From Haloquadratum walsbyi C23 (GTDB lineage: Archaea; Halobacteriota; Halobacteria; Halobacteriales; Haloferacaceae), in NCBI RefSeq assembly GCF_000237865.1, contig NC_017459.1, positions 1,710,001 through 1,742,000 on the forward strand: a stretch of 32,000 nt of DNA, in the 5' to 3' direction. The position numbers and the translations under genes are program-made. The notes under the pieces are model-generated. The model was given only the letters and a program-made list of their open reading frames with translations, ran no database searches and was not told the DNA's origin. Each line of letters begins with the position of its first letter. Position 1 is the first letter of the stretch. Of this stretch, positions 171 to 14,638 are shown in pieces.

Positions 171-1229
171 ATGGCAACAGACGTACGATTGCAGTATTAC
201 GGTGCGCAGTACGGTCAGATTATCAGCGTGTTACTTGTTGTGTCTGCAATCGCTGCGTTTGCTGCCGCAGGGTTTGTTTACACTAACCCACCAATCGAAC
301 AGACAAGCCCAGAGGAGACAAATGTGCAGTCATTCTCATTTGATACGGACCATCGTGCAACAATAACCGGTCAAAGTCAGCTTTTTGACCGTGGGCGGAC
401 GCTCCAGAACTATCCTGTCTATTTTCGGAATTCCTCACCCGATGTTACCTTCGCTACAACAATTTCTGTCCCACAAGATCGGTCAGTCGATGTCTCCTAT
501 CGAGTCATTGCAAATTATGAAGCAACGTTTCGTGGTGAAGTGTTCTGGGACCAACAGGAAGTCGTTGCAACTAATAAATGGACAGTGCAAGATGGGCAAG
601 TTCAACATAATACAACATTAACAATTTCAGAATATCTATCACGAATTGACCCATTTGAATCAGCAGTTGGGAGTACGGGAACACTATCACGAGATCTACA
701 GTTCGTTGTAACATACAGTTCACCGGTTGATGGGGGGAACAGATATGAGGGACAGTTGCGCTCGACGACGACAATTCAATCATCATCCGATGCATATTGG
801 GTAAGTTCTGAGATTGGAGATAGCACAACAAAAAGCCAGACACAGTCATCAGAGCAGTATGTCGGACAGCCAAATATGCAGCAAGTGCGATTGTTAGCCG
901 GGAGTGGTGGTATATTATTAATCGCTGGGGCAAGTGTATTCGTCTGGACGCGTCGACAGGATGACCCAGCTGAATTGGAACTTGCCGTTGTTCGCGACCG
1001 CTATGACGAGTGGATCTCAGAGGGTGAACTCCCAACCGGTGCAGCGAGTGAGTACGTATATATAAACTCACTTGAGGGGATTGTCGACATTGCAATCGAC
1101 ACCAACAAACGCGTCATTTATGACGCTGATCTTGAGACCTACAGCGTTGTTGATGAGAATATTATTTACTACTATGCGCGTGACCCGACCGCTGTCTCAT
1201 CGTGGCTGAATCTTTCTGTTGATGAATAA
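171..1229 (+). CDS. Two-pass membrane protein, DUF5305-like: N-terminal TM, ~200-aa T/S/Q-rich ectodomain, second TM, ~90-aa acidic cytoplasmic tail
   Basis: ATG-started 352-codon ORF. Hydrophobic segments are IISVLLVVSAIAAFAAAGFVY and LLAGSGGILLIAGASVFVW, the latter followed by TRRQDD. The tail motif RYDEWISEGELP...LEGIVDIAIDTNKRVIYD matches my memory of the DUF5305 family found beside SipW-type signal peptidases. The gene is convergent with, and 6 nt from, the peptidase gene. Family name is from memory, not searched. Confidence 0.7.
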   Translation: MATDVRLQYYGAQYGQIISVLLVVSAIAAFAAAGFVYTNPPIEQTSPEETNVQSFSFDTDHRATITGQSQLFDRGRTLQNYPVYFRNSSPDVTFATTISVPQDRSVDVSYRVIANYEATFRGEVFWDQQEVVATNKWTVQDGQVQHNTTLTISEYLSRIDPFESAVGSTGTLSRDLQFVVTYSSPVDGGNRYEGQLRSTTTIQSSSDAYWVSSEIGDSTTKSQTQSSEQYVGQPNMQQVRLLAGSGGILLIAGASVFVWTRRQDDPAELELAVVRDRYDEWISEGELPTGAASEYVYINSLEGIVDIAIDTNKRVIYDADLETYSVVDENIIYYYARDPTAVSSWLNLSVDE

Positions 1230-1235
1230 TATCGC

Positions 1236-2390
1236 TTATTCAAGCCATTGACGGATTTTAACCAATAATGGCACATCGCGTTGTCGGCGACCAATTCGAA
1301 TCGGGTCAAGTCCAACCAATGTCGTTGAAATAATAAATGATGCAGCACCGACAGCAGTGTTGATCGCAATGAGTGGTGCCCATGGATGAATACGATATAA
1401 TCCACTAATCATTTCACGCGGGAGAAAGGCAAGATATCGATGTTCAACAATTGCATCGACATACACACCGGTTGAGGGTGGCGCAGAAATCGTCACATTT
1501 GTTTCCGCTGTTGTCTGTGCGGGAACAACCAACTCTGTATCAGAGACAGCAACATTATCACTTGCTGGTTCAATCATCACAATAACCGGGATCCATCCAT
1601 TACTTGGGACTTGATAGCTCACTGTTTCATTTGACCCCTGTCCAATAACGGAAATCCCAGCAGAATCACTCTCCGAACTCACATACTGAAATTGATGGAC
1701 ACCACCGGGGAGGATCATACTCATAGTGAGGGTGGCTGTCAGAAGCAATATCAAGATAGTGATAATGAGTGTTGGATTGATTTTTCCTGCGGAGCGTGAG
1801 GTGTCTCGGCGGCGGGTTGATCGGGTATTTTCTGCATATGCTGACAGTGCGTATGCAATCCCACCAAAGCCAATAAGGATATATGACAGTCCTTGCCCAC
1901 CAAGGATTGCTCGTGTTCCAAGTAATACTGCTAATTCTTCCTGTGCTGTTGTTGTGAGTGATCCCATTGTGGTGACTGCAGTTCCAAGATTAGGAATCAC
2001 AACAACAAAATCACCAATCGCGAGTGCTTTTGCAACAACCTGTGACTCACTGACTGGTGGTTCAGACCCATCCTGATCGGTGACAACATTCGCATCACCA
2101 CGGGTGATATATCCATCTGATGTTGTCCCAACGACTCGATGTGTGACTAACCCACCACCGTTGAGATTAACAGCGTCAAAGGTAACAATATCACCCTCCT
2201 CAATTGGTCCAGCTAATGCTGTTGGAATCGCAATAAACCCATCACCAGCGCTAATGGTCGGAGCCATACTCCCCGTTTCAACATATGCCGGACCAACTGG
2301 CTGTCCGAGAAGTGCCCCGGCGAGCATTGAAATAACAAATAATAGTGCTAGCGCGCCGCCAACCCGTTTGAGTACCTGTACTAGCACCAT
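1236..2390 (-). CDS. Signal peptidase I, archaeal/ER (Sec11/SipW) type S26B, with a long multi-TM C-terminal extension
   Basis: ATG start. N-terminal anchor is ALALLFVISMLAGALLG. Catalytic motifs are the Ser box VETGSMAPTISAGD, the His box LVTHRVVG (Ser/His type, not the bacterial Ser/Lys type) and the Asp box ITRGDANVVTDQDG. About 200 extra residues carry three further hydrophobic segments (LSYILIGFGGIAYALSAYA, LIITILILLLTATLTMSMIL, LIAINTAVGAASFIISTTLVGL). Confidence 0.85.
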   Translation of the reverse strand: MVLVQVLKRVGGALALLFVISMLAGALLGQPVGPAYVETGSMAPTISAGDGFIAIPTALAGPIEEGDIVTFDAVNLNGGGLVTHRVVGTTSDGYITRGDANVVTDQDGSEPPVSESQVVAKALAIGDFVVVIPNLGTAVTTMGSLTTTAQEELAVLLGTRAILGGQGLSYILIGFGGIAYALSAYAENTRSTRRRDTSRSAGKINPTLIITILILLLTATLTMSMILPGGVHQFQYVSSESDSAGISVIGQGSNETVSYQVPSNGWIPVIVMIEPASDNVAVSDTELVVPAQTTAETNVTISAPPSTGVYVDAIVEHRYLAFLPREMISGLYRIHPWAPLIAINTAVGAASFIISTTLVGLDPIRIGRRQRDVPLLVKIRQWLE

Positions 2391-3252: not shown

Positions 3253-3744
3253 ATGATAATATCACGCTTCATGTGGCGAGGAATTATTTTTGCAATTGTA
3301 ATTGCACTTGGGGGAGCGGTTCTACTTGGATGGGCACCCTCTCCAACATCAACAGGAGCCGCATCACTCACGACCGATCAGGGAAACACCGATTTTGACG
3401 TAATGGTAACGACACAAGGGCGGTGTGGTCCAACATGTCTCAACGTCGCGACAGTAGTAACAAACCAACAGACAACACAAGCAACAAATATAGAAATCAC
3501 AGCTCAAGTGTTCCCTGGATACGTGGAATCAGCAAACAGCGCCACAACAACAGTAGTCTATCGAACAGAAGAACAAGTTGGGACACTTGCCCCAGGGGAG
3601 CGAAAAAGTATTGACCGGTCCGTTCGGTGGGGTAGTGCAGAGGCTCTGTCGGTCAAAGACCAGGGTGGACGCGTGACTATTCTCATTGAGATCCAATCCA
3701 CAGATACAGAAGTGACCTTCCGCGAGCATTATGATCTTATATAA
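3253..3744 (+). CDS. Small N-terminally anchored or exported protein, unknown function
   Basis: ATG start. N-terminal hydrophobic segment is GIIFAIVIALGGAVLLGW, followed by a T/Q-rich beta-type sequence (NIEITAQVF, RVTILIEIQSTDTEVTF). No family recognised. Coding call rests on length, composition and its position in the surface island. Confidence 0.55.
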   Translation: MIISRFMWRGIIFAIVIALGGAVLLGWAPSPTSTGAASLTTDQGNTDFDVMVTTQGRCGPTCLNVATVVTNQQTTQATNIEITAQVFPGYVESANSATTTVVYRTEEQVGTLAPGERKSIDRSVRWGSAEALSVKDQGGRVTILIEIQSTDTEVTFREHYDLI

Positions 3745-4147
3745 CAAATACGAAACGTGAGTGGTAACGAATCTTATCATAAGCACACGTTCACCCATCG
3801 TGCATCAGAATAATCACGAACTGAATGTGTCTGACCCTTTCGACGTGACAAGAGTGTTATCTGTTTATATTTTATATTTCACTTTCGCACTAGCACTACC
3901 ACTACCACTGCCACTTCTACTGAGATACCCAGTTACACATTAGCGATCTTTTCGCCTATAGGTGCACAAGATATCATAAATAAGTGATACAACGACGCAA
4001 TATTTCGTCGTCATGCGATTATCTAATATATTAATGATAAGTCATAATTGTATTAATCCTTCTTTTGAATCATCAATACGCATTAGCTCTAAGATTATAT
4101 CAATAATTAGCAGTAAATAACAACGGATATACCTTCACAAAACCAAT

Positions 4148-5483
4148 ATGATATATCGCATCTTATACACGCCGAGGAGCTCTTGCCCTGTTCATCACAG
4201 GAGGTGTCTGGTGGATAACTGAGACAGACGCATTTAGCTCTGCGAAGACAAGCCGATCAGCCACTGTCGGCGCCGGCTCCGATGATGTTGCACTCCTCGG
4301 AATCGGGGGTATTGATTCACGAACGGCGTTTAATGAACCACACGCAATTACACTTACAAATCAGACTCAAACCCCAGTTGAGGTGACTATTGAGAGCCGG
4401 AATGGTCGATTCAATTTCAACACATCTCAAATTAATTTATCATCTGGGGAGAACAGAGAGATTTCTGCTTCCACCGCCAGCACTGAGACCGGCGAAGTTT
4501 CAGACTTTCTCCGATTCGTTGCGACGTCACTTGAGTACGGAACGAATATTGAGGCAACTCGACGACTCACGCTGAAGTCCGAGTCTGCTGGAGCTGACAG
4601 AGGGCTCCTCATCTATGCGGTCAAGACTTCACAGTCGAATGGCGATATCAGAGTGTACAATCCAGCCACCGATACAGTCAGTAACCCGCCACAGAGTCGC
4701 CCTGCATCTGCTCTTGGAGACACAGCAGATATCGTCGGCGACAGTGCGGTCGACATTCCGTACCTCACTAAGCAAGGCAAAAATCGAGTGTATGCTACAA
4801 CTGTAGGGGAGAGTTCGGACACACAAATCCCGAAGCAAAACAGTGCTAAACCAAAAATTGACCCGAATAAGCCAACACGGATCGCAGTTGGTGAGTGGCA
4901 ACCAGCAGATCTGTCGGGGAAACTTATTCTTGCCGAGAGTAATCAAGGAAACATCGCGGGCATTGATGCGGACGGAAACGCTGAGGTGATCGCCAGACCC
5001 GGAAACGGCTGTAGTGCTGTCATGGGTGTTGCTGACGTTGACGACGATGGGAGCGATGAGATAATCTTCTTTGATGGGTCCCAAGAAATCCGGTATCTCA
5101 ATCAGGATGATAGTACAGAAAAAGTCCCAACCGGAGGCGTAGGAAGCAACAACGGGAGTGGAATCGGTCCGCCTGCAGATTTTGACGGTGATGGCGTTCC
5201 ACGAGTTCCATTCATCGACGGGAGTCAAAATCCGACTCTTATTACGAGTGATGGGGTAAAAACACGACTGAATAAGAATGGTGTTGCAAAAAAAGCCGGC
5301 GTCGCACCCGTTGATATCGACGCTGACGGCGATCTCGAATTGTTATTCTTTGGCAATGATGAGGGGAAGGTACAATATGTCGATGATGTTCTGGGGTCCA
5401 ACACGATTGAAACACTCAAAGTAGAGGGAAGCACGATCTCGCCTGAGGAAAAAATTGGCTTAGGATTCGGCAGACAGCCATAG
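4148..5483 (+). CDS. Secreted FG-GAP/VCBS-like beta-propeller protein with a TasA-like leader module; start region disrupted (possible pseudogene); paralog of 10890..12770
   Basis: The ORF track starts at GTG 4383, but the frame stays open back to a TGA at 4149-4151. The 77 upstream codons (YIASYTRRGALALFITGGVWWITETDAFSSAKTSRSATVGAGSDDVALLGIGG...NEPHAITLTNQTQTPVEV) align with the N-terminus of the 10890 paralog. The only nearby ATG (4148) is one nucleotide out of frame. The C-terminal two thirds carries repeated Asp-rich loop plus beta-strand motifs: DVDDDGSDEIIFFDG, DFDGDGVPRVPFIDG, VDIDADGDLELLFFG. Confidence 0.6.
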
Positions 5484-5879: not shown

Positions 5880-8189
5880 TCACACATCGAGGGTAAATTC
5901 TCTCGTGTGTTCCGTCGCGGTTTTCTCTTTTTCATTCACAGTCTTCACCGCAATCGTGTATGACTCTGTGTCATTAATTGAGAGAGTTGGTGGGACATAC
6001 AGTGTCGCCGGGGTCAGCTCATATCGATATGACCCGATTTCTGTTGTTCCTGTCCCGTCGGGCGTGATCTCTTTCGTGAGGAGCTCGTCTCCGTCATCGT
6101 CCACAATTGAGAGTCTGATGGCGATGATTGGGCGATTGTCATCCTCGACCACGAGTGAGTCGACACCGAGACATCGATTATCATGCTCATAGAACGGGGT
6201 CCCGAGTTCGACAATTCGTGGGTTGCGACGAATGCGGGTCATGATCGTCGCCCATGGAAAGACGCGATACCCAGCAACGGACCCCAGAATTCCAATCAGT
6301 GACAGGATCCCTGGCATAAGCACCTGCTGTGGGACGACTCGTTGATTGATCAGCGTCTCTTCGGGTGGAATCACAATCGTCTCAACTGTTGATGCCTCGC
6401 CACCATACTCATCTTCGACACGTACTTGGACTGTATATTGTGTCTCTTGGGTTGGATACGTGACCGTCTGTCCGGTCTTAATCGTCCCATCAGGGAATTC
6501 CCATCGCACGGAGACATCGCCGATTTCATTTGAGATATTCGCAGTCAGTGTTGTCTCATTTCCATCGGTTTCAACTTGAGTTTGCGTCTGCGTTTGCGTT
6601 TGTGTCTTGGTCACGTTATCGATGGCTGGAATATCATTCACCACAATCGTTTGAGTTGTTGTATCTGACTGTCCAAGGCTGTTCGTCAGTTTCAATTTAG
6701 CCTCATAGATCCCTGGTTCATTGAATTCTGTTTGAATATTCCTGCCAGTTTTTGTTGATCCATCCGGAAGTGTCCAGGTGTATCGAACATCAGGATCAGC
6801 GAAGATTGCAAATGGGGAGAACCCAGGTGTTCCCGCTTCAAGAACAACAGAGTCCTCTCGAACAGTCACATCAGTGTCCAATACCTGCCATCCGTCATCA
6901 GTCAACCGCCCGACAACAGCCTCATCAGGGTCAACCTCTCCCAGCGTCGATCGGTCTGTATTCAATTCGATCGTTGTCTCGGTATCTCCTTCTGACGATG
7001 GCACATCAATATCGACTGCTGCTGATACCTGTTGTGAGGGAGACACTGCATCAGTTGATCCAACTGTTGACTGACCTCCATCCAGTTCAACCTCCTCATC
7101 TGTTGTTGTGACGATTGCGTTCGAGTCAATGTCGAGATCAGATGTTTCAGACTCTATCCCGCTACTCGAATCCGAATCTGCTGTGCTTGTGGCTGTCTCT
7201 CCGCTTTGATCACTTTCACTCGCAGCTGTTGTCTCAGTCTCAGTCTCAGTCCCAGAGCCTTCAGTCTCCTCCTCGGCAGGTGAGTTGATAACAGCAGTCG
7301 GTCGGGACTCTCCTTCCGGAAGTGACTCCGTCGAAATAGGGTCAACATCAACAATACTCTGTCCCTGCTGTTGCTGTGACTGTGATTGTGATTGCTCTTG
7401 TCCCTCTGCTTGTCCTTGTTGCTCTATGGTTGTATCCTGTGTTTGCTGCTCTTGAGCAGACTCAATATCGACTGCTATCTCTGGCTGTTCAACCTCAGGG
7501 GCAGTTGCTGTTTGTTGTGGTTGCTCTTGTGGGGCAGTCGCCGTTCCCTCCGGTTGTTGCTGTTGTTCAGTTTCGGGGACAGAATCGGGAGTTTGTTCTG
7601 CGGGTTCATCCGAATCATCATCATCATCATCATTCTCACCTAATCCTGTGTCCGTGTCCGTGTCCGTTTCAGGCACCTGTGTTCTGATCGTGATCGTCGT
7701 GGTAAGTGTGTCTCCAACATCCACATCAAGTGTATTAATCTCAATTCCCAGCGTTTCAGACTCTCCAGGCGCGAGTGTCAGGTTTCTGCCAGTCGCTCCA
7801 ACGCCGCTGTCGGGCTCACGAAATGTGAGGTTCTGCCCAACTGTGAGTCGGGAATCTTGCTGTTCAACGGTGACGGTGACAGGTCCATCGGTGGTATTGT
7901 CTGTGTGGGTAATGACGAGTAACTCTTCGAATTCGGTAATGGCATCCGCATTGACACCTGGATTGGCAATCTCAATCGAGACGTTTGTGACGTTTGTGTT
8001 CTCGCCTGCGGTCTCTGTCTTCGTGATGTGCTGCTCGGCTCCAGAAGCCGGTTTGACTGTGATCTCCGGAGCCTCTTCGGGGAAGAGTTCATCCTCAACG
8101 ACACCTGGCGTGCCGACAATCGCCCCTGGAATCACAACGAATGCTGCACATACGACTACGAGTATCGGGCTTACCGAATTAATTTTCAT
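5880..8189 (-). CDS. Large surface protein: signal/anchor, N-terminal beta-sandwich module, acidic low-complexity spacer, PGF-pre-PGF-type motif, two PKD-like domains, TM helix, ~130-aa cytoplasmic domain
   Basis: ATG start 11 nt downstream of the stop of the 8201..8818 gene. Leader is MKINSVSPILVVVCAAFVVIPGAIVG. The N-terminal module reads VSIEIANPG...LVITHTDNTTDGPVTVTV. Low-complexity runs include TDTDTD, D8, SQSQSQQQQ and TETETE. The PGF-pre-PGF-type motif is DGWQVLDTDVTVREDSVVLEAGTPGFSPFAIFA. PKD-like repeats are VRYTWTLPDGSTKTG...YEAKLKLTNSLGQSDTTTQTIVV and VRWEFPDGTIKTG...YTVQVRVEDEYGGEASTVETIVI. The TM is LMPGILSLIGILGSVAGY, followed by RIRRNPR. Confidence 0.8.
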   Translation of the reverse strand: MKINSVSPILVVVCAAFVVIPGAIVGTPGVVEDELFPEEAPEITVKPASGAEQHITKTETAGENTNVTNVSIEIANPGVNADAITEFEELLVITHTDNTTDGPVTVTVEQQDSRLTVGQNLTFREPDSGVGATGRNLTLAPGESETLGIEINTLDVDVGDTLTTTITIRTQVPETDTDTDTGLGENDDDDDDSDEPAEQTPDSVPETEQQQQPEGTATAPQEQPQQTATAPEVEQPEIAVDIESAQEQQTQDTTIEQQGQAEGQEQSQSQSQQQQGQSIVDVDPISTESLPEGESRPTAVINSPAEEETEGSGTETETETTAASESDQSGETATSTADSDSSSGIESETSDLDIDSNAIVTTTDEEVELDGGQSTVGSTDAVSPSQQVSAAVDIDVPSSEGDTETTIELNTDRSTLGEVDPDEAVVGRLTDDGWQVLDTDVTVREDSVVLEAGTPGFSPFAIFADPDVRYTWTLPDGSTKTGRNIQTEFNEPGIYEAKLKLTNSLGQSDTTTQTIVVNDIPAIDNVTKTQTQTQTQTQVETDGNETTLTANISNEIGDVSVRWEFPDGTIKTGQTVTYPTQETQYTVQVRVEDEYGGEASTVETIVIPPEETLINQRVVPQQVLMPGILSLIGILGSVAGYRVFPWATIMTRIRRNPRIVELGTPFYEHDNRCLGVDSLVVEDDNRPIIAIRLSIVDDDGDELLTKEITPDGTGTTEIGSYRYELTPATLYVPPTLSINDTESYTIAVKTVNEKEKTATEHTREFTLDV

Positions 8190-8200
8190 AATTTCCCCTG

Positions 8201-8818
8201 TTATCCTGTCTGTCTGATATGAACGTGTGCAGTCGCAGTGATTGTCGAACTCGTTGCTTCAGTTCCGGCTCCGGTTCCAGAAATAGATGCAGATGCAGAA
8301 TCGTCAGCAACGACTCCGACAACACGCTCTTCACCCGGCTCAAGCGTCACAGTGACATCAGTGCCGCTTAATCGCTCACCAGTCTCAGCATCACGATATT
8401 GTAGATCTGTGGATCCAGCGTTTGCATCCGTCTCTGTCTTCGTGTCGACATTTGTATCCTCGTGTGTGATCCAGACGGTCACCGTCTGTGTGTCAGTGTT
8501 CGTGATCGTGAACACTGGCTGGGATGGATTCGGTTGTGTCGGGATCGCTTGTGGTGGCGTAATATCAACACGTGTGATTGCCCCATCACGCAATGTGTTC
8601 TGGGCAGTGAGTGCCCCAGGGGCATCCCCAGCAGGTTCGATCATCACTGCCTGTGGATTCCCCCCTGTATTGGGGGCGGGTGTTGATGCTGCTGATGCTG
8701 ATGCTGTTCCACTAAGGCTAGGACTGGAAGCGTCTAACGCCGAGACCAACCCGCTTGAGGCGATGATCGCGGCGATGACGACTGCGAGTGCGAGCGTCTT
8801 GACTAATCGGGGTGTCAT
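8201..8818 (-). CDS. Small secreted protein, divergent paralog of the TasA-like proteins
   Basis: ATG start. Sec-type leader is MTPRLVKTLALAVVIAAIIASSGLVSA, followed by an A/S/T/P linker. The core motif VFTITNTDTQTVTVWITHED matches IFNITNNGEEDVDVWINTEG and IFNITNNGESTVTVWIATQG of the two larger paralogs. It is co-directional between the 8952 gene and the 5880 gene. Confidence 0.7.
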   Translation of the reverse strand: MTPRLVKTLALAVVIAAIIASSGLVSALDASSPSLSGTASASAASTPAPNTGGNPQAVMIEPAGDAPGALTAQNTLRDGAITRVDITPPQAIPTQPNPSQPVFTITNTDTQTVTVWITHEDTNVDTKTETDANAGSTDLQYRDAETGERLSGTDVTVTLEPGEERVVGVVADDSASASISGTGAGTEATSSTITATAHVHIRQTG

Positions 8819-8951: not shown

Positions 8952-9698
8952 TTATGATCCTGGTCCTGTGGTTGTTCCCCCATCTATTGCGTTGTCACCT
9001 TCCTCATCATTCACTGCTGAGATGGTGATATCCTCGAGGATTGGCTCATCAGTGTTGTCGAGATTGAGTGTACCGCTGCTCACAGCTTCAGGCTCGATTT
9101 CGATTGCCATACTGACTGTCACTGTCTCACCAGATTCAATATTAACCGCTATAGCGTTGTTATCCGGTTGTTCCGAGAGACTACTTGAGTCCTCAGAGAT
9201 AACGACATCGTCGGAATCAATCATCGCGTTGAATTCGTTGATTCTGTTGTCTATACTCACTGAAGAATCACTACTTGTCTCGTTGATCTGAGAGCCAAGC
9301 TGATTATCATCAATATAGAATGTCGTATTGACGCTGCTATTACCGTCTTGTGCACCGCCTTCTGTGTTAATCCAGACGTCGACATCCTCTTCGCCGTTGT
9401 TTGTAATATTGAATATGCCCTCAGCAGTTGTCGTTGCGTTCGCATTCACTCCATTATTGCCATCATTTCCATCTAGGACGATCTCGAAGGTCGAATCATC
9501 AGTGTCATCTTGATTAATGAATGAACTATTCTCCGGATCTTCAGTCGGCTGGATTGCGAGGAGTGCATTCGCGTCGCCAGCAACGTCGACATCAGCTGTA
9601 CGCTCTGCTTCAACAGTTGTGAACGCGCCCGTGGCCGCGAGGGTGCCCACGGCACCAAAGACCAGCACAAGCGCGAGGAGTTTTCCTTTTGGAATCAT
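8952..9698 (-). CDS. Secreted TasA/camelysin-like protein (possibly DUF1102 family), candidate major fibre subunit, paralog 1
   Basis: I prefer ATG 9698 over the upstream GTG 9752 because it gives a canonical leader, MIPKGKLLALVLVFGAVGTLAATGAFTTVEAERTADVDVAGD. This parallels the paralog at 13830 and the SipW-dependent TasA leader as I recall it (...LVGGGTWAAFNDIKSKDATFASGTLDL). The core motif FNITNNGEEDVDVW resembles TasA FQFENNGSLAIKEV. The protein is N/T/S/D-rich with many N-x-S/T sequons. Confidence 0.85.
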   Translation of the reverse strand: MIPKGKLLALVLVFGAVGTLAATGAFTTVEAERTADVDVAGDANALLAIQPTEDPENSSFINQDDTDDSTFEIVLDGNDGNNGVNANATTTAEGIFNITNNGEEDVDVWINTEGGAQDGNSSVNTTFYIDDNQLGSQINETSSDSSVSIDNRINEFNAMIDSDDVVISEDSSSLSEQPDNNAIAVNIESGETVTVSMAIEIEPEAVSSGTLNLDNTDEPILEDITISAVNDEEGDNAIDGGTTTGPGS

Positions 9699-9805
9699 AG
9701 TTTGAATTTCTGTGATTATGATGTGAGTTCCCCCGATCAGAGGGGTTCTCACTTACATGTACACAAACACCCTTCCCCCTTTGTTATCCCCCTCTACTAA
9801 ATCAG

Positions 9806-9965
9806 TAGGAGATAATAACGTCACCCCGGGACTCACATAGGTGACGCTAAATTGCCCCGGCAATTCGAATAGGAGATGCTAAACTCACCCTGAAAATATG
9901 ATAGGCGACGCTAAATAATCGCAAAAATCGAGTTAGTCTTGTGTAAAATCACCGTTAGACCCGCC
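9806..9965. repeat. Phased tandem array with exact 32-bp spacing: four clear units and one degenerate unit, consensus TAGGnGAYGCTAAA
   Basis: Units start at 9806 (taggagataataac), 9838 (taggtgacgctaaa), 9870 (taggagatgctaaa), 9902 (taggcgacgctaaa) and 9934 (tagtcttgtgtaaa). The array lies 108-267 bp upstream of the 9698 start, in the 1.19-kb divergent intergenic region. Confidence 0.7.
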
Positions 9966-10889
9966 TAATATGGCGAATATAGTGAATCCAGGATGATTTG
10001 TGCACACCACTCAGTGATATGCATACAATCTCAATTCGATGAAATACTTGGAACCCCCACTCTCGATCGGGGATGGTTCCTCCGACATCGATTGTCTCGG
10101 ATATGTGACCTCGCGCGAGTCTTTCATTAGTGATCCCTCGATATTCGGAATCGCGAGCGCAATCGTTGATCGAATGGACTGTCTATTCAATTCTCATCGG
10201 TCAGGATTCACCTGTGAATCTAATTTAGTCAGATATTCCCACCACGGTGATCAGTCTGAGAGTTTCGAGCAGCCAGATGGGCCGCGGTCGGATCATCTAT
10301 CGGTCTCAATAGCTCCCTGACATGAGGAGAATAATGGGTTTCTTGATGCTATGATTGAGAGCAGAACGATTGTCATCAGATTCTCATGTGTTTCTTACTG
10401 ATGATACGTAGCGATATAGCTATATGATGATATAGCACTCTGTCGACCAACTGGTCAACGGTGATGATCAGAAGCATTGTCCTGTATATTCAACCGGGTG
10501 CAAGATAGATTGTTGATATCGACATTGCTGAACGGGTCATTCTCGCTGCGACTGTTTCGGGCGAGAGCGAGTCAATGCCGGTGTCAGGTGATTATATAAA
10601 ACATATTCGACGTATGCATCGTTTTGTCTGTGATTTACGCTAGAAACTGGGTATGGCTTGTGTGCGCAATCACGTAGACAACGATGACAAACAACGTCGG
10701 ATCGAAAAGATGAATCACACGCTGTTACTCGTCTCATCTCCATTCATGAATATAGATATAAACATACGATAGATTTCATGATATACTGACGCTCTACGGA
10801 ATTGTGAATTGTGGGGAGAGATATGTACCCTGAAAGCAACGTAATTGATTTATTCACTCGTATTGAACATGTAAGCAACAAATCAAATA

Positions 10890-12770
<1,881 letters not shown>

Positions 12771-13125: not shown

Positions 13126-13830
13126 TCAGTCGACTTCGAGTCCAGCTTCTGATTGATCAGGGTCTGCAATAGCAAGTATCGTAATCCGATTGAGGACCGC
13201 TTGATTGGAGTCAGGATCAATCCCATCGATTTCGACGGCAATACTAATATGAACACTCTGACCTGGAGTAATACTAATCCCAATTCCCTCTGTTCCTGGA
13301 GTGTCACCAGTGATTTCCGGCTCCGAGATGACGTAGTCCTGACCCGGATCGATGAATGCGTCAAAGGTAGTAATTCGTCTATCGATACTGACACCGCGAT
13401 CTTCAATTTCAGTCACATTCGCATTTTGAGAACTGCCGATATCGTCAATGTAGAATGTCGTATTAACATTATCTGACTCATTTTGTAAGCCGCCTTGTGT
13501 TGCTATCCACACTGTTACTGTTGATTCCCCGTTATTTGTAATATTGAAGATATTCGCTGCGGTTGTTGTTGCGTTTGTATTTAATTGTGCATTGTTTCTT
13601 CCACTCACATCAATCGCAAAAGTGCTATCGGCAGTGTCAGACTGCTGAATAAACGCACTTTCATCTGGGTCAACTGCCGGTTGAATTCCTAACAGTGCAT
13701 TAGCGTCCCCGGCGACGTCCACATCTGCGGTTCGCTCAGCCTCAACTGTACTGAATGCCCCTGTTGCGGTCACTCCAATTGCTCCACCAAAGAGCAGCAA
13801 AACAGCCACTACTCTAAGGAGTGATATCAT
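13126..13830 (-). CDS. Secreted TasA/camelysin-like protein (possibly DUF1102 family), paralog 2
   Basis: ATG start. Leader plus first strand is MISLLRVVAVLLLFGGAIGVTATGAFSTVEAERTADVDVAGDANALLGIQP, nearly identical at protein level to paralog 1. Shared core motifs are NATTTA, IFNITNNGESTVTVW and VNTTFYIDD. Confidence 0.85.
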   Translation of the reverse strand: MISLLRVVAVLLLFGGAIGVTATGAFSTVEAERTADVDVAGDANALLGIQPAVDPDESAFIQQSDTADSTFAIDVSGRNNAQLNTNATTTAANIFNITNNGESTVTVWIATQGGLQNESDNVNTTFYIDDIGSSQNANVTEIEDRGVSIDRRITTFDAFIDPGQDYVISEPEITGDTPGTEGIGISITPGQSVHISIAVEIDGIDPDSNQAVLNRITILAIADPDQSEAGLEVD

Positions 13831-14003: not shown

Positions 14004-14065
14004 ACAACTCAAAATTCGTTGGTTTGATATTGATTGGATTGTCAGTATATGTACGAATAACCCTG

Positions 14066-14638
14066 ATGATGATAGCCGACGCTGCCGAACAACAAAACAG
14101 TGTAAAGGCGTTATCGACGGATGAGGCATATGATATTCTTTCTGATCAGCGCCGGCGATATGCCATTCATCATCTCAAGCAATTAGACACGGCAGTAAGC
14201 GTTCAGGACCTTGCTGAACAGGTAGCCGCATGGGAGAATGAAAAACCGATTGAACAGTTAAATTCACAGGAGCGAAAACGGGTTTATATCTCGTTATATC
14301 AATCACATCTTTCAACACTTGATGATGAAGGGATTGTTGAATACGATGAAGAAAACGGAATGGTCAGTCTCACTGACGCTGCCGATGAATTAAATATCTA
14401 CTTTGAGGTTGTGGCAGGCGATGATATTCCATGGAGTATATTTTATATTGGTCTAACGGCCGCTTTCAGTGCACTTGTCGGACTTACATACACTGGAATC
14501 GGTGTTCTCCAGCGAAGTCAACTTATCTTCGTGACAATTGGAATGCTTGTTTCGTATACTGCTGCAGGAGTTATCCAGACAATCCAACGAAAACGGATGG
14601 AATTGGGCGACTCTGGACCACCACCAGAATTGCAGTGA
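14066..14638 (+). CDS. Membrane-tethered winged-helix (ArsR-like, haloarchaeal DUF7344-type) putative transcription regulator
   Basis: The motif AYDILSDQRRRYAIHHLKQLDTAVSVQDLAEQVAAWENEKPIEQLNSQERKRVYISLYQSHLSTLDDEGIVEYDEENGMVSL matches the haloarchaeal HTH family I recall as DUF7344. Two C-terminal TM helices are WSIFYIGLTAAFSALVGLTY and LIFVTIGMLVSYTAAGVIQTI. I prefer ATG 14066 over TTG 14024. Confidence 0.75.
   Translation: MMIADAAEQQNSVKALSTDEAYDILSDQRRRYAIHHLKQLDTAVSVQDLAEQVAAWENEKPIEQLNSQERKRVYISLYQSHLSTLDDEGIVEYDEENGMVSLTDAADELNIYFEVVAGDDIPWSIFYIGLTAAFSALVGLTYTGIGVLQRSQLIFVTIGMLVSYTAAGVIQTIQRKRMELGDSGPPPELQ

Follow-up and report, generated by a model that had tools for sequence, protein, structure and literature searches.

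A tafi-type gene cluster in Haloquadratum walsbyi whose pilins and propeller-like tip proteins very probably share a donor-strand cassette

The fimbriae known as tafi (Tat-fimbriae, after the twin-arginine, or Tat, export route; also TafE bundling pili) were described in 2023-2025 and are a known system. In Haloarcula hispanica (TafA-TafG; Galeva et al., iScience 2025, PMC11821415), TafA, TafE and the tip protein TafC have an N-terminal region in common, and the cluster encodes a signal peptidase of its own, TafD. Mass spectrometry places the mature N-terminus of TafA at Phe-30, after an Ala, and not at the site predicted by SignalP, and TafC was modelled at the fimbrial tip, donating its N-terminal strand. 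In Natrinema sp. J7-2 (PDB 9P0A; Sonani et al., PNAS 2025, PMC12337348), cryo-electron microscopy (cryo-EM) of TafE showed that the N-terminal strand B, hydrophobic on one face and polar on the other, is donated to a neighbour, whose groove it fills beside strand B'. Here we analyse a window of 32,000 nucleotides from the haloarchaeon Haloquadratum walsbyi C23 (contig NC_017459.1, positions 1,710,001 to 1,742,000), in which two small proteins, A and B, and two larger ones, C and D, share one N-terminal module. Exact protein look-ups of the window lead to CCC40526-CCC40535, mostly annotated just as "hypothetical protein", and the main text of both tafi papers does not mention Haloquadratum. We conclude that the module is very probably a cassette carried by the tip adhesins and the other subunits of a donor-strand fimbria of the tafi type, and that this locus adds another instance of the known system. 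What the locus itself establishes is that these proteins are homologs of TafE and TafC, that a taf-type gene set is present, that the conserved block is under strong purifying selection and that it is linked to TafD/TafG; the precise point of cleavage, the donation of strands, the order of the filament and the secretion routes in H. walsbyi we infer from the published relatives.

The interval singled out in the earlier note, 9540-9698 on the minus strand, corresponds to the first 53 codons of A, and the four N-termini quoted there are each found exactly in the translations. In A the module comprises a Sec-type leader, MIPKGKLLALVLVFGAVGTLAATGA (9624-9698), a predicted cleavage site between A25 and F26 (Phe codon 9621-9623) and a conserved mature N-terminus that would form the donor strand, FTTVEAERTADVDVAGDANALL (9558-9623). 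The corresponding elements of B, also on the minus strand, are a leader at 13756-13830, the Phe26 codon at 13753-13755 and the conserved block at 13690-13755. On the plus strand, C is predicted to be cleaved between G26 and F27 (Phe codon 10968-10970), and in the module of D the Phe codon lies at 4233-4235. A six-frame motif scan of the window found the module in the open reading frames (ORFs) of A, B, C and D only. Across genomes, scanning a single genome for each species yielded 78 loci; regular-expression false positives of low complexity (e.g., L038 at 3571 and L060 at 7338) were filtered by length and by the composition of the hydrophobic region (h-region) of the leader, leaving 92 credible module ORFs in 62 loci. 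These comprise 80 small proteins (mature length <= 260 residues) and 12 large ones; 70 carry a twin arginine (RR) in the leader and 22 lack it. Loci with 9 kb or more of sequence on either side, of which there are 35, are referred to as fully flanked.

The small proteins are TafE-like and are putative donor-strand pilins, with A encoded at 8952..9698 on the minus strand (248 residues, CCC40532) and its paralog B at 13126..13830 on the same strand (234 residues, CCC40535). They match the NCBIfam TafE model with E-values of 4e-14 and 3e-13, respectively, both under the 155-bit equivalog cut-off, and residues 7-119 of A align with the Natrinema pilin solved by cryo-EM (9p0a_C; E 3.7e-11). This alignment pairs TGAFTTVEAERT of the module with TGAFSSVEADRT of Natrinema TafE, and over a longer span LAATGAFTTVEAERTADVDVAGDA with LGTGAFSSVEADRTVSVAVAGDA; the two homologous pilins share a TGA/F[ST][ST]VEA[ED]RT...V.V.GD N-terminus, and the R-T-A-D-V-D-V-A-G stretch of the window module alternates between hydrophobic and polar residues as Natrinema strand B does. 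In Natrinema this N-terminus serves as the donor strand, and it would do so in Haloquadratum as well. In 9p0a_C, 188 of 215 residues are modelled, which would be consistent with a chain that starts at Phe28, right after TGA. When the AlphaFold2 (AF2) model of A was compared by Foldseek, the top three PDB matches were 9p0a, 7ueg (the Pyrobaculum bundling pilus) and 7pnb (the Sulfolobus thread), all of them archaeal donor-strand filaments. The isolated 60-residue modules match the N-termini of the NCBIfam TafE, TafA and TafC models and no others. Relative to the Natrinema pilin, A and B carry insertions of approximately 30-60 residues. Pfam gave no match for C, nor any at E <= 0.01 for A and B; of the 14 homologs aligned with A, four match Pfam DUF1102 (PF06510; best E 3.2e-7), but A and B themselves do not, so that this relation is distant.

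The larger proteins are TafC-like over their N-terminal approximately 150 residues only: C (10890..12770, plus strand; 626 residues) matches NCBIfam TafC at E 6e-8 (residues 2-170), and its paralog D (open frame 4152..5483, plus strand; approximately 442 residues) at E 4e-7. C consists of a twin-arginine leader (MGKYTRRAAL...), the module, a β-sandwich N-domain, a poly-N/(ND)n linker and a β-propeller-like C-terminal region. Its AF2 model (predicted local distance difference test, pLDDT, 75) is disordered over residues 1-41 and continues with the β-sandwich and the propeller-like region; Foldseek matched it to the propellers of LRP6, DDB1 and teneurin and, at E ~1e-3, to the Ig-like folds of Saf, Fim, Caf and Csu. 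The weak TafC match and these Ig-like pilin folds hint that the modelled N-domain of C may have the pilin fold. D has an RR leader and the module, and scores 23.9 bits, below the cut-off, with Pfam FG-GAP_3. A propeller-like C-terminal domain on module proteins was found in Haloquadratum only, in the loci sampled. Within C, positions 11739-11874 hold perfect tandem repeats, (AACAATAAT)x3.6 and (AACGAC)x18, which encode the poly-Asn/(Asn-Asp)n linker inside the propeller-like region. This tract probably varies in length between strains, homologs being 560-609 residues long as against 626 in C.

Candidate genes for the tip, the pilin and the anchor are all represented, together with those for processing. 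The TafD-like two-domain S26 signal peptidase (1236..2390, minus strand; 384 residues, CCC40527) scores 26 bits with Pfam S26 (cut-off 22.9) and 51.2 bits with TIGR02228, just under the cut-off of 51.85. It has the motifs GSM (Ser41) and His84-Arg85, and four hydrophobic segments, some of them in a C-terminal extension; in 41 other loci a homolog (E 1e-40 to 1e-127) is encoded next to module genes. A TafG-like DUF5305 membrane protein (171..1229, plus strand; 352 residues, CCC40526; PF17231 E 1.7e-37) is encoded convergently, its gene ending 7 bp from the end of TafD, and TafG co-occurs with TafD in related loci. Two proteins that join a pilin-like β-sandwich core to an ordinary leader, with no module, are candidates for acceptor-only, TafF-like base subunits, a role that a core lacking the cassette fits. 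One is a 769-residue candidate anchor (5880..8189, minus strand) with a weak match to NCBIfam TafF (E 4e-4) and an alignment to the pilin core by hhalign (E 5e-6). Its features are a Sec-type leader, the core at its N-terminus, PKD domains and one C-terminal hydrophobic segment. The other, of 205 residues (8201..8818, minus strand), resembles TafF1/F2 in being a candidate acceptor-only subunit and has an N-terminal hydrophobic segment and a core that aligns with that of the A family by hhalign (E 9e-9). The 769-residue protein also contains a long acidic/Gln-rich spacer and a further domain past the C-terminal hydrophobic segment.

From the published relatives we propose the following mechanism for the locus. 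The n- and h-regions of the leader would select the translocon, Sec-type in A and B and twin-arginine in C and D, and the c-region T-G-A (or T-A-G, T-D-A) would be cut by the TafD of the locus, probably with TafG, directly before the invariant Phe. In the resulting mature N-terminus, F-[TS]-[TS]-V-x-A-E-R-T-x-V-x-V-x-G-D, the alternating stretch would be a donor β-strand that fills the groove of the next subunit, and the A-L-L segment after it would probably be strand B', beside the incoming strand. A propeller-bearing C or D would stand at the tip and donate its strand to the first pilin, A and B would polymerise head to tail, and at the membrane the last strand would be taken up by the TafF-like proteins, whose core comes without a donor strand of its own. 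This distribution, with the cassette on C/D and A/B but missing from the TafF-like proteins, agrees with the polarity proposed for the Haloarcula tafi, where in the model the tip TafC donates a strand and the TafF anchor accepts one (PMC11821415). The earlier note had suggested a dedicated peptidase site, a donor-strand N-terminus and propeller proteins processed, and perhaps incorporated, by the same route; our analysis lends support to all three, as A and B are homologous to TafE, the N-termini of C and D match that of TafC and TafD/TafG-like genes are present, and the proposal is essentially the published tafi model.

The closest comparisons agree on the gene set and differ in its details. 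The Natrinema and Haloquadratum loci are alike in having TafD, TafG and a TafB-like gene together with variable tip and anchor proteins. The Haloarcula cluster is similar both in gene set and in the N-terminal approximately 40 residues that are common to pilins and to larger proteins with unrelated C-termini. Its major pilin is of the TafA type, whereas the Haloquadratum locus, like that of Natrinema, has no TafA ortholog, and the TafE-type pilin is therefore probably the major subunit in both. At its C-terminus, the tip protein of Haloarcula carries a laminin-G-like domain where those of Haloquadratum are propeller-like.

Several points weigh against a fimbria of this kind in H. walsbyi. A, B, C and D all score far under the NCBIfam equivalog cut-offs (e.g., 52.7 vs 155 bits) and are therefore relatives of the taf proteins, not orthologs; the AF2 model of A is of medium confidence only (pLDDT 64); and the Sec and Tat assignments are based only on whether the leader contains RR and on its hydropathy. 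In 12 of the 35 fully flanked loci neither TafD nor TafG lies within 10 kb of the module. D has no canonical start, reading ATC at 4155-4157 where the ortholog from J07HQW1 (MGTFTRR...) has ATG; its 5' end (4147-4160) reads Y-I-A-S-Y-T-R-R with a stop two codons upstream of the ATC, and the remaining approximately 440 codons are open, which points to a recent loss of the start codon (a pseudogene), to non-canonical initiation or to a sequencing error. A literature search found no report of a filament, a mature N-terminus or expression data for Haloquadratum.

That the papers searched report no Haloquadratum filaments would also suit a scenario in which the same cassette serves a non-filamentous or matrix assembly, such as short oligomers, a TasA-like biofilm network or a junction between the square cells. 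Some single Sec-type revertants among the TafE homologs are predicted to be non-filamentous or non-oligomeric, and the Natrinema tafi bundle and promote biofilm formation (PMC12337348). We regard this scenario as improbable, given that the locus has a full set of tip, pilin and candidate anchor genes, that the largest Sec-type clade among the published Tat-to-Sec reversions of TafE homologs is confidently predicted to be filamentous (PMC12337348) and that the clade with the Sec-type leader of the A family is large and well conserved.

The fimbrial reading was also weighed against a second scenario, in which the block is a generic haloarchaeal secretion signal followed by residues kept through ancestry, with neither a dedicated peptidase nor a role in assembly. 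Small residues at -3 and -1 are indeed universal in signal peptides, and the 12 fully flanked loci without TafD/TafG nearby are what this scenario would expect. In the other 23 of the 35, however, a TafD or TafG homolog lies at most 10 kb from the module, at a median distance of 3.3 kb, and given the few S26 genes per genome of 3-4 Mb we estimate that chance would produce such linkage in approximately 1-2% of cases. The earlier note had considered that the module might prove unlinked to this type of peptidase; the observed linkage is far above the estimate and argues that the module is not a generic signal. Moreover, conservation peaks after the cleavage site: mean pairwise identity among 102 homologs is 81% over mature residues 1-22 and 29-44% elsewhere. 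Among the 92 module ORFs the positions -3 T, -2 G, +6 A, +17 D, +20 A and +22 L are near-invariant without being constrained by the search, and +1 F and +8 R are near-invariant as well, although both were set by the search pattern. Finally, the homolog in 9P0A uses the same segment as its donor strand. We therefore consider a generic signal very unlikely.

Outside the haloarchaeal loci, a metagenome-assembled genome (MAG) of Candidatus Methanofastidiosia (L046, L048, L052) carries a TGA/FTSV.AERS cassette on small proteins with lysine-type leaders that lack RR. An RR version of the same cassette occurs on a contig binned as Planctomycetia (L059), which is probably a mis-binned haloarchaeal contig.

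The conservation of the block between the two pilins is old and acts at the level of the protein. In a codon alignment of the 22 codons TGAF[T/S]TVEAERTADVDVAGDA, A and B differ at 17 nucleotides and by one amino acid. The earlier note had counted about 16 differences with one residue changed, and although its residue count stands, the coordinates that it gave for B (13702-13766) are 1-2 bases out of register, such that the 65-mers as given differ at 55 of 65 positions and its claim stands only once the codons are aligned. The proportion of synonymous sites that differ (pS) is 0.87 (15.5 of 17.8 sites; saturated) and that of nonsynonymous sites (pN) is 0.031, as against a pN of 0.37 for residues 48-248, which bears out the view of the earlier note that the block is held by purifying selection and not by recent gene conversion. 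Recent gene conversion or duplication between the two paralogs, which lie 4 kb apart on the same strand and could in principle exchange sequence, or a nucleotide element such as a 5' mRNA structure or regulatory site, was rejected on this synonymous divergence and deserves almost no credence, as nearly all of the 17 differences in 66 nt are synonymous and the amino-acid block is kept in more than 100 homologs of other lineages and genera.

Beyond the module, the pilin and tip families have little in common at the level of sequence. Profile-profile comparison of the A and C families gave an E-value of 3.5e-11, a likeness well past what chance would produce, that is limited to 35 columns (A16-50 vs C17-51), with no similarity detected beyond them, which identifies the module as a cassette common to otherwise dissimilar proteins. 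A second motif, x-I-T-[IL]-T-N, was said in the earlier note to follow the block after about 25 residues in all four proteins. This holds for C (EITITNN, residues 67-73) and D (AITLTNQ), both approximately 25 residues after the block, but not for A and B, where the related FNITNNG (residues 96-102) stands approximately 50 residues downstream. The 205-residue neighbour, which lacks the module, also carries the motif (FTITNTD); it therefore marks the β-sandwich core and not the leader.

A more complicated picture is evident in the leaders. A twin-arginine leader on fimbrial subunits, used as a criterion for tafi, is present on C and D, which have YTRR, and absent from A (MIPKGKLLAL...) and B (MISLLRVVAV...). 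The hydropathy of the h-region follows the same division, with 2.51 for A and 2.44 for B as against 1.86 for C and 1.21 for D; across loci its mean is 1.66 for RR leaders and 2.58 for non-RR leaders (p = 3e-10). Among 120 database homologs of A, the intact N-termini are all of the type M-x-P-K-G-K-L-L-A-L...A-T-G-A/F-T-T-V-E-A-E-R-T, and none has RR. As Sec-type revertants of TafE homologs are documented (PMC12337348), the missing RR does not exclude A and B from the wider tafi family. The Natrinema pilin, in contrast, has an RRNVL Tat leader and the Haloquadratum tips are propeller-like; in Haloarcula all three subunits are Tat substrates, whereas in Haloquadratum RR is found on the tip proteins only.

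Mixed RR and non-RR leaders within one locus were seen in Haloquadratum only (the window and L001), in the loci sampled; L009, L014 and L015, which are also Sec-type, encode large proteins with the module that lack RR as well. Mixed export routes within one locus are unmentioned in the tafi literature examined. We tentatively suggest, with slightly more doubt than belief, that one fimbria is built from two routes, A and B being exported unfolded through Sec and C and D folded through Tat, with the same TafD site and donor strand in all four.

More distant systems provide further points of comparison. The DUF1102/Sec-dependent taf-like clusters of Thermococcales and Archaeoglobales likewise have Sec-type leaders on small pilins beside TafD- and TafG-like genes, but Haloquadratum is a haloarchaeon whose tips keep their Tat leaders, and A and B miss Pfam DUF1102. 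The TasA/TapA-SipW system of Bacillus is similar in its dedicated S26 peptidase beside the genes for fibre subunits, in its donor-strand-complemented β-sandwiches and in an accessory protein that gives the first strand, and differs in that TafD is extended by a C-terminal membrane/Ig-like domain and is partnered by a DUF5305 protein. The comparison with SipW-cognate signals that the earlier note had put forward yielded nothing: TIGR04088 matches none of the four 60-residue N-termini at E <= 10, and the SipW equivalog model NF046067 gives 27.7 bits against a cut-off of 190, so that the relation to SipW/TasA is one of analogy. With the chaperone-usher pili (Fim, Pap, Saf, Caf), tafi share N-terminal donor-strand exchange and a two-domain tip adhesin, but they have no chaperone, usher or outer membrane, and C and D reverse the domain order of FimH, with the pilin domain at the N-terminus and the adhesin domain at the C-terminus.

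Other features of the locus concern regulation and variability. A candidate TafB-like regulator (14024..14638, plus strand) with a DUF7344 winged-helix domain (PF24035 E 3.5e-30) and two C-terminal hydrophobic segments is divergent from pilin B, and in 51 related loci a homolog is encoded approximately 0.5 kb upstream of the pilin gene. Between TafD and D, the product of 3253..3744 (plus strand; 163 residues, CCC40528) has an N-terminal hydrophobic segment, a V-A-T-V-V-T-N-Q motif and no family match, and may be another small β-sandwich component of the locus. The divergent genes for A and C are separated by 1.2 kb (9699-10889) without a long ORF, unusually long for a promoter region, the single mechanical ORF within it being one of 93 residues at 10039..10320.

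At 90% identity pilin A forms a singleton cluster, whereas the TafD and TafG clusters have approximately 40 members on many metagenomic contigs, and saltern metagenomes contain A homologs from 92% down to 38% identity in which the N-terminus is invariant. In Haloquadratum populations the pilins look hypervariable, with the machinery and the cassette fixed. Extra PKGKLLAL...TGA/FTTV copies occur on the plus strand in Haloquadratum MAGs (L001 at 5149; L010 at 896 and 2747), ended by a stop or entering masked sequence, which suggests remnants of pilin genes or several pilin cassettes per genome.

The concept of a dedicated peptidase and a donor strand common to pilins and tip adhesins was published in 2025, and the present finding confirms known biology. 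Two features may be new, namely Sec-type pilin leaders together with twin-arginine tip leaders in one locus, and a propeller instead of a laminin-G tip domain. If the mixed route is true, processing and assembly by strand exchange would be independent of the translocon and specified wholly by a cassette of approximately 25 residues, and the Sec-type and Tat-type leaders that stand side by side with the same cassette provide a natural test of how far the system depends on its export route. For the organism, the locus proposes a function for approximately 10 hypothetical genes in the dominant archaeon of crystalliser ponds, and it predicts, in an organism with no known reputation for surface filaments, an adhesive fimbria whose pilins are hypervariable and whose tip adhesins bear propellers.

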